The position numbers and the translations under genes are program-made. A stretch of 64,000 nt of DNA from Shigella phage ESh36: sequence record ON528746, one strand, 5' to 3'. Positions 34,139 to 43,418 of the stretch are shown here, piece after piece (within the stretch, counting starts at the first letter, position 1; each line of letters opens with the position of its first letter). The notes beneath the pieces are model-generated. The model was not told the origin of the DNA. It saw only the letters and a list, made by a program, of their open reading frames with translations, and ran no database searches.

Positions 34139-34417
34139 TTATTCTTTAAATCTAATCAATTTATTCATAGACTTTGAAACTTCTGCACGGACCTCATGCA
34201 GGTTTTTAAGCTGTTCAAGACGTTGCTCATAGTAAGCAATTTCATCTTCTTCAAGACAGTCCTGTGAATCTTCTTTAAGATAACGCGCATAGTCCTGGAA
34301 AGCTTTACGGACTACTTCTTGGAAGTCATCAAGACTTTGAATTTTCTTAGGAGCAACAGATACACGACGAGGGGCAGTATAATACTCATAACCAAACCCT
34401 GCGCTTAATTGAGCCAT
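34139..34417 (-). CDS. Hypothetical protein (vs.3 position)
   Basis: 92 aa from the ATG at 34417 ([13 protein letters not shown]...), overlapping the stop of the upstream gene. Confidence 0.4.
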
Positions 34418-34683
34418 TAATATTTTTCCTCTGGTTGGAACACAGCACGACAAGCCCACATACTGGCTTCTTTGAGTTTCGTTTTAGCAATAGTTAACTG
34501 ATCGAGGCTTTCAGCATAATTCTTCGCGAATTCACAGTCTTCACAATTATCTAGTGCTTCCCAAAATTCATCGTATAAAGCGTCAAAGATAAGTCCTAAA
34601 CGAACTTCAGCATCTTTGATAGCATTCACTTTACTGATTTTATCGTCAGTATGTGGCTTATAACCTTTAATATCTTCAATCAT
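34417..34683 (-). CDS. Candidate Acb2 (anti-CBASS cyclic-oligonucleotide sponge; vs.4 position)
   Basis: 88 aa from the ATG at 34683 with GAGGAAG SD; position equals T4 vs.4, which I recall as Acb2; sequence not independently verified. Confidence 0.4.
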
Positions 34684-34897
34684 ATTTGACTTCCTCACCA
34701 GTACATAAATCATATTCAACTAAACGAATAGGTTCATGAATGCCATATCCTTGAACAGAAATTTCTGTCGTAGGATAAATTCCATCAATATCACCCATGG
34801 TCCATGCTTCATTAAATTGCTGTTCGCCTGAATTACTAAACCACTCGGCGAAAGCATTTAACACATCTTTAGAACCTTCAATAATTATCTTTGCCAT
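34676..34897 (-). CDS. Hypothetical protein (vs.5 position)
   Basis: 73 aa ORF. Confidence 0.4.
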   Translation of the reverse strand: MAKIIIEGSKDVLNAFAEWFSNSGEQQFNEAWTMGDIDGIYPTTEISVQGYGIHEPIRLVEYDLCTGEEVKYD

Positions 34898-35259
34898 TAC
34901 AAGCTCTCAGTAAAGGTACGAGCGATAACGTCGCGCTGCTGTTCCGGAGTCAGAGAGTTAAAGCGAACTGCATAACCGGATACACGGATGGTCAGCTGCG
35001 GATATTTTTCCGGATGCTTAACTGCATCTTCCAGAGTTTCACGACGCAGAACGTTAACGTTCAGGTGCTGACCACCTTCAATTTTAACGGTAGGCTGTGA
35101 TTCAATTTCAATTTCACGGGCATGCAAACCGTAGAAAATTTCTGGGTCTACAAAAGAGTCCTCTTTAAAGGTTTTAGAAACAATAATTCGTGCTTGAATA
35201 CCATCTTCAAAATAAATAGTACCTTTATGTGTGCCTTCAAGAATTTGATATGCTTTCAT
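34897..35259 (-). CDS. Autonomous glycyl radical cofactor GrcA/YfiD homologue (vs.6 position)
   Basis: 120 aa; C-terminal ~60 aa (...[59 protein letters not shown]) matches E. coli GrcA as remembered; glycyl radical motif RVSGY. Confidence 0.8.
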
Positions 35260-35265
35260 ATAACC

Positions 35266-35646
35266 TCAATTAGAAAATAAATTTATCCAAGATTGTTCTT
35301 TAATTAAAAATGGCTCAGAATCATATGCCATTAAACTTTGTGTGATTAGTCCTTTAAAAGGCCCATCAATAAATTCCATGGTAAAATATGGAATTTTATT
35401 CATTAATCTTGCATTAGGAGCAGTACACAAAACTCTGCATCCTTTGAATACACCTTTTTGTAATTTGTATTGCTTAGGATAAAATTCGCTCAAGACGTTG
35501 TTATTTGCCAAAATTTCAAAATGATTCACCAATTTATTTTTAATAGTTTTTGGTGAAAAATAAAGATATTCGAAAAGTTGCGTGTCTGTCATCATTGCAT
35601 TCCAATCACAAAAAATTGAGGACGAGTAATACCGCCAATGCAGCAT
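35266..35646 (-). CDS. Hypothetical protein (vs.7 position)
   Basis: 126 aa ORF. Confidence 0.4.
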   Translation of the reverse strand: MLHWRYYSSSIFCDWNAMMTDTQLFEYLYFSPKTIKNKLVNHFEILANNNVLSEFYPKQYKLQKGVFKGCRVLCTAPNARLMNKIPYFTMEFIDGPFKGLITQSLMAYDSEPFLIKEQSWINLFSN

Positions 35647-36098
35647 TTACTATTGCAGCAGTGTTGCACAGTTTCAATATGAATATCATAAATTTTATCC
35701 ATATCAGGAGATTTAACAGGCTCATCGATTATATACAAAATCCGCGAAAGCGATAAACCTCTGAACTTGCTACCTCTATTACCAACAAAACTACGGATAG
35801 AATCGGTAAATAAGCGGAATCGAATATCATCGCTAGAATAACGAGAAAATTCTTTTTTAATGTGGCCCGCAGAAATTTTAGCGTAAGCTGAAGTATTAGA
35901 AAGAACAATAACTGTTCCACCATTATACAGCCAATTAGCAGCAAAGTTAGTCACAGCAGTTGATTTACCTGATTGACGTCCACCATCTAAACGAAGTGTA
36001 CAATATTCTTTAAATAAATGTGACGAATAAGGTACATAAAATCCACTATTACAAATTTCTTCTACTCTAGCATCAGAATGGTGTGTAAAAGCATTCAT
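35592..36098 (-). CDS. Small P-loop NTPase-like protein (vs.8 position)
   Basis: 168 aa; Walker A GGRQSGKST and Walker B-like ILYIIDEP. Confidence 0.45.
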   Translation of the reverse strand: MNAFTHHSDARVEEICNSGFYVPYSSHLFKEYCTLRLDGGRQSGKSTAVTNFAANWLYNGGTVIVLSNTSAYAKISAGHIKKEFSRYSSDDIRFRLFTDSIRSFVGNRGSKFRGLSLSRILYIIDEPVKSPDMDKIYDIHIETVQHCCNSKCCIGGITRPQFFVIGMQ

Positions 36099-36286
36099 CA
36101 GGATAGATAAGGACCAGTTAAAAATGTTCTCATTTTATTCTCTCTAAATTTGGGCCATTCCATGGCACATGAATTGTCCATTTCTGTATTTACCCATTAC
36201 CGCACTTGGGCTCGACCTTATTACAGGTTGGCGGGAATCCCTCATAGAATCATGAGGTCCAGCTTGTTCCCATATTTCTTATTTGC

Positions 36287-36760
36287 TTATTTGAATGATT
36301 TGACGTACTGAATAGAGCCTTTGCTATTCACGAAAGCGATTTTACCATTTTTGTTATACATGGTAGCAGTACGCTGATAACCATAAGTTTGTTTACCAGA
36401 TTGATAACCAACTAATGCGAAATTATCTTCACCCATTTTATTCTGCTTCGCGCGGATACGTTCATGACCATGTGCCATAAGAACCTTAGCGTCGCCAGTT
36501 GCAATGGATCTACGAGTTTTTTCATCTTCAACTGTATTAACAAAGTCGTCAAATGAATCAAATTTAGCGTGAGATTTATTATACAGTTTTCCATCTACTG
36601 CATAATTATATCCCTGTACATCCATCTCAACTTCTGTACCATCATCCAATACAGCAGTGATTTTTTGACCTTTTTTAAATTTCAAAAGATCAGTAAAAGA
36701 TTCAGCGATAATTTGAGAATTAATAGCTGCTTCAGTGATAAATTCTTGATATGTTTTCAT
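36287..36760 (-). CDS. Head internal protein (IP family) with capsid targeting sequence
   Basis: 157 aa; N-terminal MKTYQEFITEA leader typical of T4 internal proteins (cleaved after the Glu by the prohead protease). Confidence 0.6.
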   Translation of the reverse strand: MKTYQEFITEAAINSQIIAESFTDLLKFKKGQKITAVLDDGTEVEMDVQGYNYAVDGKLYNKSHAKFDSFDDFVNTVEDEKTRRSIATGDAKVLMAHGHERIRAKQNKMGEDNFALVGYQSGKQTYGYQRTATMYNKNGKIAFVNSKGSIQYVKSFK

Positions 36761-42152: not shown

Positions 42153-42242
42153 TTAAAATCCTTGAAATAATTTATCGGTTGGTTATTAATTATTTATTAC
42201 TTTGTTACTATCCGTAACAGCGTTATCCGAGTGATTCAAACT

Positions 42243-42270
42243 AAAAAGCCCCAACCTTTCGGTCGGGGCT
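42243..42270 (-). terminator. Strong intrinsic terminator ending the tRNA/small-RNA transcription unit
   Basis: 10-bp stem AGCCCCGACC/GGUUGGGGCU with GAAA loop, followed by UUUUU on the transcript. Confidence 0.7.
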
Positions 42271-42272
42271 AA

Positions 42273-42586
42273 GCCTTGCGGCAACCTTGTCGGGGTTCCA
42301 CCTGCTAAGGCAAGTGTTTGTACGAAACGCCGGGACTTGAACCCGGTTATTAAGTAGTTGACGCTACTCAATATTTTTAAAAGGCCATATCTCGACCATA
42401 TCCGAACGTTCCGTCAAAAACGCTACTCGGCTTACGGCAAAGATATTTCCTCGAATCGATAATTCGGTGCGCCGTTTCTGCTGTGATATAAGGGGACATT
42501 AACAAAACATAAAGATTTATTAATGCCAGTCCTTAAACAGGGAACATCAGTCCGACGACTTACCGGTAGCGACCCGGTTTCTTGTC
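42273..42586 (-). ncRNA. Candidate stable small RNA(s) between tRNA-Arg and the terminator (T4 species 1/2 position)
   Basis: No credible ORF; lies inside the tRNA operon before its terminator; contains a T-arm-like CCGGG-UUCAAGU-CCCGG element; boundaries not determined. Confidence 0.3.
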
Positions 42587-42662
42587 TGGTCGAGGCAGTA
42601 GGGATCGAACCTACGACCCAGGACTTAGAAGGTCCTTGCTCTTCCTTCTGAGCTATGCCTCG
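42587..42662 (-). tRNA. tRNA-Arg (anticodon UCU)
   Basis: Manual cloverleaf: acceptor CGAGGCA, anticodon loop CUUCUAA, T-loop GGTTCGATCC, CCA encoded. Confidence 0.85.
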
Positions 42663-42666
42663 TATT

Positions 42667-42741
42667 TGGCGGACGTGATAGGATTCGAACCTATAACCAA
42701 TCGCTTAACAGGCGATCGCTCTGCCATTGAGCTACACATCC
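42667..42741 (-). tRNA. tRNA-Asn (anticodon GUU)
   Basis: Manual cloverleaf: D-stem GCTC/GAGC, anticodon stem ATCGC/GCGAT, loop CUGUUAA, T-arm ATAGG-TTCGAAT-CCTAT, CCA encoded. Confidence 0.8.
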
Positions 42742-42745
42742 AAAT

Positions 42746-42832
42746 TGGTGGGGAGTGATGGAGTCGAACCACCCGAGTCGCAATGACAATGAATTTACAG
42801 TCCACACCGCTACCTCTACGGGATAACTCCCC
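42746..42832 (-). tRNA. tRNA-Tyr (anticodon GUA), type II with long variable arm
   Basis: 87 nt; anticodon loop CUGUAAA; variable arm GTC-ATTGC-GAC; T-loop GGTTCGACTCC; CCA encoded. Confidence 0.75.
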
Positions 42833-42845
42833 TTAATTCTTAATT

Positions 42846-42920
42846 TGGTGGCCCTGGGTGGAATTGAACCACCATCTGGCGATTATGAGTCGCTTGCTTG
42901 AACCTTCCAGCTACAGGGCC
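42846..42920 (-). tRNA. tRNA-Ile (anticodon CAU, Ile2/lysidine type; Met not excluded)
   Basis: Anticodon arm GCGAC-UCAUAAU-CGC as in E. coli tRNA-Ile2; acceptor GGCCCTG/CAGGGCC; unusual short D-stem. Confidence 0.7.
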
Positions 42921-42921
42921 T

Positions 42922-42997
42922 TGGTGCTGATTGACGGAATCGAACCGCCGACCTTCTCATTACAAGTGAGTTGCTCTACCTACTGAGCTAAATCAGC
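42922..42997 (-). tRNA. tRNA-Thr (anticodon UGU)
   Basis: Canonical cloverleaf; anticodon loop CUUGUAA; CCA encoded. Confidence 0.85.
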
Positions 42998-43002
42998 AAA
43001 AC

Positions 43003-43092
43003 TGGCGGAGGCGATAGGATTTGAACCTATGAGTCGCCGGAGCGACTGCCGGTTTTCAAGACCGGTGCATTAAACCACTCTGCCACGCCTCC
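43003..43092 (-). tRNA. tRNA-Ser (anticodon UGA), type II
   Basis: 90 nt; matches remembered T4 tRNA-Ser; anticodon loop CUUGAAA; long variable arm. Confidence 0.88.
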
Positions 43093-43094
43093 AG

Positions 43095-43168
43095 TCTCCA
43101 TACAAGGATTTGAACCTTGGACCTCCTGATCCCAAATCAGGCGCTCTACCAAACTGAGCTACACGGAG
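43095..43168 (-). tRNA. tRNA-Pro (anticodon UGG); 3' CCA not encoded
   Basis: Anticodon loop UUUGGGA; followed by CU and then the tRNA-Ser 5' end (Pro-Ser dimeric precursor arrangement). Confidence 0.85.
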
Positions 43169-43178
43169 TAAATTAAAT

Positions 43179-43252
<74 letters not shown>

Positions 43253-43257
43253 AAATT

Positions 43258-43344
43258 TGGTGCGAGAAGTGGGACTCGAACCCACAAGGAAATCATTCCG
43301 CAGCATTTTAAGTGCTGTGCCTTTACCAATTTGACCATTCTCGC
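43258..43344 (-). tRNA. tRNA-Leu (anticodon UAA), type II
   Basis: 87 nt; matches remembered T4 tRNA-Leu (GCGAGAAUGGUCAAAUUGGUAAAGGCACAGCACUUAAAAUGCUGCGG...). Confidence 0.9.
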
Positions 43345-43345
43345 G

Positions 43346-43418
43346 CTGGGAATAAAGGACTCGAACCTTTGCATCTAGCAGTCAAAGTGCTATGCCTTAC
43401 CAACTTGGCTAATTCCCA
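43346..43418 (-). tRNA. tRNA-Gln (anticodon UUG); 3' CCA not encoded
   Basis: Starts UGGGAAU; anticodon loop CUUUGAC; discriminator G then one C before the tRNA-Leu 5' end. Confidence 0.88.

Follow-up and report, generated by a model that had tools for sequence, protein, structure and literature searches.

How does a T4-like phage come to carry a gene of which one half is, letter for letter, a gene of its host? The question is raised by a small gene in Shigella phage ESh36, in a stretch of 64,000 nucleotides (nt) from sequence record ON528746 that we analysed as a whole and call the window. The gene is the orthologue of T4 vs.6 (protein Y06I) and encodes a relative of GrcA (YfiD), the autonomous glycyl-radical cofactor of E. 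coli (Table 1). The best reading we have found, which we consider quite probable, is that an old phage homologue of grcA has had its 3' half replaced by recurrent gene conversion from the host chromosome.

The host-identical patch

Residues 61-120 of the protein are identical to residues 68-127 of E. coli GrcA at 60 of 60 positions. A preliminary description of this DNA, made from the letters alone, had noted this identity over the last 60 or so amino acids (aa), including the RVSGY glycyl-radical motif, and it was correct. The agreement extends to the DNA. Gene nt 179-363 match E. coli grcA nt 200-384 at 183 of 185 positions, and pairwise alignment gives an unbroken run of 175 identical nt (34907-35081, equal to grcA nt 200-374). 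The only two differences in the region are synonymous and fall in the last three sense codons (GAG for GAA, TTG for CTG), next to the place where the stop codon overlaps the start of the following gene (TAATG in the phage, TAAGG in the host). The transferred tract ends about 10 nt short of the stop codon, and pairwise alignment found no similarity to the host beyond the stop. The 5' edge is equally abrupt: at 35081/35082 the phage reads GTT AAA ATT and the host GTT CGC GTT, both followed by GAAGGTGG, and upstream of this point DNA identity to grcA is about 43-45%.

A match of 95-99% to the 3' half of the gene is present in every one of the 5,426 complete E. coli genomes. We compared a 172-nt query (34910-35081) with grcA in 60 evenly spaced E. 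coli genomes and found 100% identity in about five (~8%; O157:H7 and others), 99.4% in ~43%, 98.8% in ~43% and 98.3% in the remainder. Over the 176-nt core (grcA nt 200-375), identity is 99.4% with E. coli and falls to 97.7% with Escherichia sp. MOD1-EC7003 and 92% with Citrobacter amalonaticus. The E. coli genes pflB and tdcE match the patch region at only 75-81%, so the donor was grcA and not one of these. When the whole window was searched with megablast against the 5,426 E. coli genomes, the patch matched and nothing else did.

The patch also stands out in composition. Its G+C content (GC) is 0.497, against a window mean of 0.349 (z = 3.3), and the preliminary description, which had placed GC-richer DNA at about 34897-35080, was right to within a few bases. 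Only 0.74% of 175-nt segments in the window reach this value, and, the patch aside, these are confined to the tRNA cluster and the stretch immediately upstream of it. A step in GC and codon usage inside the gene, which the same description had suggested looking for, is present: GC rises from 0.34 in the 5' half to 0.50 in the 3' half and GC at third codon positions (GC3) from 0.20 to 0.46. In E. coli grcA, GC3 is 0.44 in both halves.

Protein constraint and the direction of transfer

Phages that carry the gene without a host-type patch provide a baseline for what protein conservation alone can do. The identical 60 C-terminal residues are encoded by Pseudotevenvirus-type phages (IMG/VR contigs L094-L096 and Citrobacter phage Margaery), but their DNA has only 81-85% identity to bacterial grcA, with at most 83-85% to any of the roughly 80 genes that we sampled. 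Homologues in T5-like, Krischvirus-like, Aeromonas and jumbo phages have 67-79% nt identity to grcA. Thus the unconverted homologues (Margaery and L094-L096, Karamvirus CC31, Krischvirus JSE, T5-like phages) belong to the same family and have the same or a similar C-terminal protein, yet they reach 67-85% to any sampled bacterial grcA where the window patch reaches 99-100%. Because phages with the very same 60 residues are at 81-85%, we do not think that constraint on the protein explains the identity of the patch; that it exceeds protein conservation, as the preliminary description had supposed, is therefore borne out.

The N-terminal half was described as phage-like and divergent, and it is AT-rich with about 45% nt identity to grcA, but it is not unrelated to GrcA: it has 33% aa identity over 40 aa to GrcA 28-67 (E = 1e-5). 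Since this half is a diverged GrcA homologue, we regard the gene as an old phage grcA with a replaced 3' half and not as a fusion of unrelated parts.

Judging from the sequences, the only comfortable reading is that the transfer went from host to phage, and from E. coli itself. The composition of the patch is host-like while the remainder of the gene, like the phage genome, is AT-rich, the patch is closest to E. coli, and the 5' and 3' halves of E. coli grcA diverge congruently from those of other enterobacteria.

Alleles shared between E. coli and its phages

The patch is widespread. Matches of 95-99% to the 3' half of E. coli grcA occur in at least 515 phage records, with T4, T2, other Tequatrovirus and Mosigvirus among them. 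The idea of a chimeric gene formed by recent capture of host DNA holds up for the origin of the 3' half, but the event was neither private to this phage nor single, given the number of records and the several alleles and two host genera described below. Between Tequatrovirus and Mosigvirus, the flanks of the gene differ by about 26% and its 5' half by 10.5% (20% at third positions), and the patch differs by 1.5% (4.5% at third positions). The last 12 nt are the most variable part of the gene among phages, with 10% difference within Tequatrovirus and 19% between the genera.

We read seven E. coli alleles and 25-28 E. coli-phage sequences base by base. The seven alleles vary at seven core sites (nt 213, 222, 225, 234, 240, 246 and 303), and six of these also vary in the phages, with the same alternative bases (hypergeometric P = 0.0016-0.005, third positions only). 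Four of the seven E. coli core haplotypes recur exactly in phages: the O157-type in the window phage, the SK1144-type in T2, L084, L085, L088, RPN187 and L186, the O104-type in L183 and the SC418-type in Shfl2. When ten phage-only variants were combined in a synthetic query, none of the 5,426 E. coli genomes came closer to it than the baseline allele. Since the phage-only variants are not found in E. coli, the shared sites are not simply common mutational hotspots. One such variant, 216T, occurs in both phage genera (ph0021, phiC120, L087, L175 and NRG-P0074) and in none of the 5,426 E. coli genomes, so exchange between phages within the patch probably also occurs. The haplotype sharing, in what is a small sample, gives moderate support for several E. 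coli alleles having acted as donors.

The only aa changes in the patch among the 28 E. coli-phage sequences are Arg73His in T4 (L163), a private change caused by G>A at grcA nt 239, and a Glu>Asp change in ph0021 (L170), caused by A>C at nt 273.

We also scanned metagenomes with a 20-mer across the junction, which returned 12 loci. Eight contigs were retained and carry the same in-frame junction; the other four loci (L177, L178, L179 and L182) were rejected as chance matches in unrelated genes encoding ...VKIEGG.... With flanks 38-40% different from Tequatrovirus, L175 might appear to be a third lineage. It is an APCEc01/JK42-like phage, a type that we take to be Mosigvirus, and it has a different downstream neighbour, which inflates the flank distance, so we did not count it as a third genus.

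A second donor in Klebsiella and Raoultella phages

The same gene architecture is found in the Jiaodavirus phages JIPh_Kp122, Ra_O-1, Ro_M12a, Roth68 and PKO111. Their core patch is 96-98% identical to Klebsiella grcA (92% in PKO111) and about 88% identical to E. coli grcA, where L191, a sequence whose protein is named K. variicola GrcA by NCBI, serves as the Klebsiella reference. The Jiaodavirus patch encodes LLDAVEH as its host does, while E. coli and its phages have LEDAVKH, and Roth68 has in common with the Klebsiella allele its Ser variant (LTSEQQ). Along the Jiaodavirus gene, GC3 rises from 0.24 in the 5' half to 0.59 in the 3' half. On these alignments we are certain that there were at least two independent donors, E. 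coli and Klebsiella.

The diversity of the patch argues for repeated copying. Within Jiaodavirus, diversity is higher in the patch (2.4-9.0%) than in the 5' half (0.6-4.5%), and within Tequatrovirus the order is reversed (1.9% in the patch and 4.7% in the 5' half). In both systems the diversity of the patch follows that of the host gene and not that of the phage backbone, which is why we favor repeated copying from hosts.

Some records in these comparisons deserve a remark of their own. In the Jiaodavirus-like contig L108 (IMGVR_UViG_2974754850_000001, 1501-1863), the vs.6 frame breaks after about 42 codons, which is either a pseudogene or a sequencing indel. The Salmonella representative L009 ('Salmonella enterica strain s1') has LLDAVEH, and the large S. 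enterica protein cluster P0020 has LEDAVKH. The record L033 (NZ_JBQPOM010000029.1) is labelled 'Vagococcus sp. WN89Y', a Firmicute, and has an enterobacterial grcA (91% aa identity) on a contig of 253 kb; this suggests that the record is contaminated or mislabelled. Klebsiella sp. WOUb02 has grcA on 'plasmid unnamed4' (L025, NZ_CP170105.1, 275 kb), which may be a chromid or a mis-assigned chromosomal contig.

How host DNA may reach the gene

The starting point would be the old phage grcA homologue, present in T4-like and T5-like phages, with a 3' half about 80% identical to grcA as in the unconverted lineages today. A rare homeologous exchange could have founded the patch. In Tequatrovirus, Mosigvirus and Jiaodavirus, the 3' half would then have been overwritten by host chromosomal grcA through homologous recombination, with the 175-185 bp of perfect homology offering a substrate for the phage recombination machinery acting on fragments of host DNA. 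The patch can be a self-perpetuating recombination target because this part of the genome has no other homology to the host and each conversion restores the identity. Tracts cannot spread in the 5' direction because the homology ends where the conserved domain begins, and they cannot spread in the 3' direction because the ATG of vs.5 overlaps the stop codon, so that the last bases stay phage-type. The variability of the last 12 nt among phages is consistent with this constraint.

During infection, T4 is known to exchange sequence with homologous DNA carried on plasmids (marker rescue, and the insertion/substitution system), for which a few hundred bp of homology or less is enough, and this makes copying from the chromosome plausible. 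Those plasmids are engineered substrates, though, and for vs.6 the natural chromosome would have to serve as donor even as T4 degrades it. The recombination mechanism and the frequency of conversion are inferred. On balance, we lean towards the 3' half of vs.6 being in ongoing concerted evolution with the host chromosome, with virulent T-even phages re-copying about 175 bp of grcA from their current host population.

Several observations weigh against recurrent conversion from the host, or at least limit it. The overlap test weakens as phage variants are added (P goes from 0.0016 to 0.005), and it rests on seven alleles and 28 phages. Some shared variants sit on different backgrounds: L083 combines G213 with C240 and K-12 has A213 with C240, and 222T and 246G are linked in SCU-101 and separate in L176 and L180. 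To account for these, one has to invoke short tracts, alleles outside the sample or parallel mutation. Three of the four phages isolated on K-12 lack the K-12 allele (C240), and Tequatrovirus SG1, which was isolated on Salmonella, retains a patch of the E. coli type, which means that conversion is infrequent on the time scale of laboratory work. PKO111 does no better than its 92% with the best available Klebsiella allele. The coliphage lineages Krischvirus, Pseudotevenvirus and T5-like are unconverted. Lastly, T4 degrades host DNA, which should limit the supply of donor.

We considered whether the patch is an imprint of the isolation host and rejected this: besides the three K-12 isolates, phiC120, which was isolated on O157:H7, does not have the O157 allele.

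Alternative explanations

If the host were no longer a donor, one or a few recent captures might have spread among co-infecting T-even phages by phage-phage recombination. The variant 216T is what such spread would leave behind, being common to both genera and not found in E. coli, and the patch is the most similar stretch between the genera. We nevertheless find this unlikely as the whole explanation, because it does not account for four E. coli haplotypes recurring exactly and six of seven host polymorphisms reappearing, nor for Klebsiella-type patches that are more diverse than the phage backbone. Exchange between phages probably operates alongside conversion from the host and not instead of it. 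We think it distinctly unlikely that there was a single capture in the ancestor of Tequatrovirus and Mosigvirus, followed by vertical inheritance under selection at the nucleotide level, such as on codon usage or messenger RNA structure. That the E. coli-type patches all share the 5' junction and have similar tail substitutions (375G, 378T/379T) would fit a single origin, and purifying selection on the protein is very strong. The difficulty is that other phages encode the same 60 aa with 15-19% nt differences, so no constraint at the nucleotide level is evident. Third-position divergence between the genera also falls from 20% in the 5' half to 4.5% in the patch, the phage variants coincide with alleles that segregate in E. 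coli, and Jiaodavirus has a Klebsiella-type patch instead.

Transfer could also have run the other way, with E. coli (and Klebsiella) taking the 3' half of grcA, or single alleles of it, from phages. Haplotype sharing alone gives no direction, and a two-way exchange has been inferred for cyanophage psbA (PMC1484495). We hold this to be highly improbable here. The GC3 of the patch (0.46, and 0.59 in Jiaodavirus) does not resemble that of the phage 5' half (0.20-0.24) and fits the host gene (0.44 in E. coli; for Klebsiella grcA, 0.67 in the 3' half), the congruent divergence of the two halves of E. coli grcA argues against an import, and native phage sequence as seen in unconverted lineages is AT-rich and 67-85% identical to grcA. 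As for an artefact, in which host reads or host DNA were mis-assembled into phage genomes, nothing speaks for it besides the identity itself and we give it practically no credence: the same in-frame junctions are present in the T4 reference, T2, more than 500 independent GenBank genomes, IMG/VR contigs and the eight metagenome contigs, the patches carry phage-specific tail substitutions, and the host flank is absent.

Function

As T4 vs.6 is Y06I, the gene and its biochemical function were known before this work, and as a gene with a function it is ordinary. A passage of PMC8683613 that refers to Wagner et al. 2001 states that both Y06I and the YfiD/GrcA of E. coli are given a glycyl radical by the activating enzyme of pyruvate formate-lyase (PFL) and restore PFL that has been cleaved by O2. 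The preliminary description had proposed repair of oxygen-damaged PFL for the window protein, and by analogy this agrees with the biochemistry of T4 Y06I as that passage gives it. By the same analogy, with Y06I and with E. coli GrcA, the host PFL-activating enzyme would put the radical on Gly95, and the protein would then dock onto host PFL cleaved by oxygen at Gly734 and restore its activity. The restored enzyme would contribute to the fermentative energy supply of the infected cell, a benefit in vivo that we suggest from the biochemistry.

T4-like phages encode a glycyl-radical enzyme of their own, the anaerobic ribonucleotide reductase NrdD. The protein might serve NrdD or nucleotide metabolism and not host PFL, as was proposed from a Pfam match in PMC1524935, but we consider this very unlikely. 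The C-terminal domain is that of GrcA and aligns with the C-terminus of PflB (697-759; 9e-42 for GrcA and 5e-26 for PflB), the same contigs contain NrdD-type motifs (RVCGY) whose sequence is unrelated (8/60), and in vitro reconstitution of cleaved PFL has been reported for Y06I, as far as PMC8683613 relates it.

Relation to earlier work

T4, the textbook virulent phage, breaks down cytosine DNA and excludes it, and for this reason is usually seen as genetically isolated from its host. A 175-bp host tract that is perfect to the base and follows the allele and genus of the host would mean that recombination from chromosome to phage takes place in nature wherever short homology exists. Our literature search for a nucleotide-level mosaic or concerted evolution of this gene returned only functional work and the Pfam-level note (PMC1524935), and an earlier mention in older key papers is possible. 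Repeated, host-tracking conversion of a gene of a virulent phage appears to be undescribed in the searchable literature.

The closest precedent is the mosaic psbA and psbD of marine T4-like cyanophages, where patchy G+C content and recombination tests indicate intragenic exchange between host and phage (Zeidner 2005; Sullivan 2006, PMC1484495). Like vs.6, these are auxiliary metabolic genes in T4-like phages with signs of intragenic recombination with the host. The psbA signal is diffuse and its direction is debated; in vs.6, by contrast, there is a single block with base-exact edges, its donor species and allele can be named (99-100% identity), T4 itself, the model phage, carries it, and a second host genus provides a replicate.

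If our interpretation of vs.6 as a gene converted again and again by its hosts is true, the patch is a natural and datable record of recent host species and allele, and it would be the first tractable natural system in which to measure gene flow from host to virulent phage and its tract lengths. Conversion may also keep the radical domain matched to the PflB and PflA of the host (LEDAVKH in phages of E. coli, LLDAVEH in those of Klebsiella). As the marker is compact, a single amplicon of the polymerase chain reaction (PCR) with a readable donor allele, the rate at which phages sample host DNA and the lengths of tracts become testable, and so does the idea that auxiliary metabolic genes are kept host-matched by conversion rather than by point mutation. 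A practical consequence is that the T-even patch will cross-map with E. coli and Klebsiella reads in decontamination, quantitative PCR and metagenomic host assignment.

The gene, its protein and its neighbours

The features of the locus are collected in Table 1.

Table 1. Features of the vs.6 locus in the window (ORF, open reading frame).
Feature	Position	Strand	Evidence
vs.6/Y06I orthologue, GrcA-like autonomous glycyl-radical cofactor, 120 aa	34897..35259	-	ORF list, Pfam, TIGR04365, PDB 6owr, synteny with T4 vs.6
Phage-type 5' half (aa 1-59/60), AT-rich diverged GrcA N-terminal region	35082..35259	-	GC, GC3, alignment
Host-derived patch encoding the glycyl-radical domain, equal to E. coli grcA nt 200-374 (O157:H7-type allele)	34907..35081	-	alignment
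Phage-specific tail, last three sense codons and stop; 3' limit of the converted tract	34897..34906	-	alignment, variant lists
RVSGY glycyl-radical motif, aa 92-96; radical glycine Gly95, codon 34975-34977	34972..34986	-	
vs.5 homologue, downstream gene; ATG overlaps vs.6 stop (TAATG)	34676..34897	-	ORF list, alignment, T4 and Shfl2 annotation
vs.7 homologue, upstream gene	35266..35646	-	ORF list, T4 annotation

The Pfam family Gly_radical (PF01228) matches the ORF at 2.4e-18 (67.1 bits, cut-off 22.2). The NCBIfam equivalog TIGR04365 (spare_glycyl) covers aa 20-120 with an E-value of 1.4e-45, but its 154.7 bits are below the cut-off of 170, a shortfall that we attribute to the diverged N-terminal half. 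The RefSeq name of the T4 protein (NP_049730.1) is GrcA, despite this sub-cut-off score of the window protein. The GrcA structure PDB 6owr matches from aa 22 at 9e-42, covering GrcA 28-127, and Gly95 aligns with GrcA Gly102. The alignment to the PflB C-terminus, which contains Gly734, runs over aa 58-120 (E ~5e-26). With a separate gene on each side, the ORF encodes a small stand-alone protein made of the radical domain and a short N-terminal region.

E. coli GrcA and the window protein share the C-terminal 60 aa, the RVSGY site, the plan of a small autonomous domain and a homologous N-terminal region; the phage protein is 7 residues shorter and its N-terminal half is only ~33% identical. Unlike E. 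coli grcA, the gene lies in a phage gene cluster under phage expression signals, without the host promoter or flanks. A scan of the vs.6 region for promoters and terminators gave hits at chance level only.

Over the 1.4 kb around the gene, Shigella phage ESh16 has 99.8% identity to the window sequence, and many other Tequatrovirus genomes have 97-98%. In the T4 reference, vs.6 sits at the equivalent position, between vs.7 and vs.5. T4 Y06I is an orthologue of equal length, also with a host-type 3' half, that differs at 2 of 120 aa (S54P, R73H). The two phages differ in allele, as the window phage has the O157:H7 type (G213) and T4 has the commoner A213 together with its private non-synonymous R73H. 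For the vs.7 homologue, the start annotated in relatives is an internal ATG (330 nt). Alignment and megablast against E. coli found no similarity between the vs.7 region and the host ung-grcA intergenic region.

Other observations in the window

Two genes downstream of vs.6, the Vs.4 homologue (34417-34719, minus strand) matches Pfam Acb2_Tad1_hairpin (1.9e-19, 70 bits, cut-off 27), and on this match it is probably a cyclic-nucleotide sponge of the Acb2 type, directed against the cyclic-oligonucleotide-based antiphage signaling system (anti-CBASS). In the other direction, the interval from vs.7 to denV (35592-36760, minus strand) differs from that of T4: a 168-aa ORF (35592-36098) takes the place of the 219-aa vs.8 of T4, and there is an extra 157-aa ORF at 36287-36760 (minus strand) without a counterpart in T4. 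GC is locally raised (0.47) at 36150-36274.

A cluster of 10 tRNA genes is located at 42587-43418 (minus strand). Within it, the segment at about 42681-42838 (tRNA-Asn/Tyr) matches some 240 non-mobilizable plasmids of 90-137 kb from E. coli, Shigella and Salmonella at 83-88%; these are probably phage-plasmids with related tRNA genes. Four pieces of the window between about 36191 and 43170 match the E. coli plasmid CP057073.1 (137 kb; 99451-100863, 'hypothetical protein') at 90.6%, and this plasmid may contain a T4-like fragment or mis-binned sequence. Just upstream of the tRNA cluster, ARAGORN calls no tRNA in a GC-rich stretch at 42241-42439 (at least 0.497 over 175 nt), which could correspond to the small stable RNAs known beside the T4 tRNA genes.

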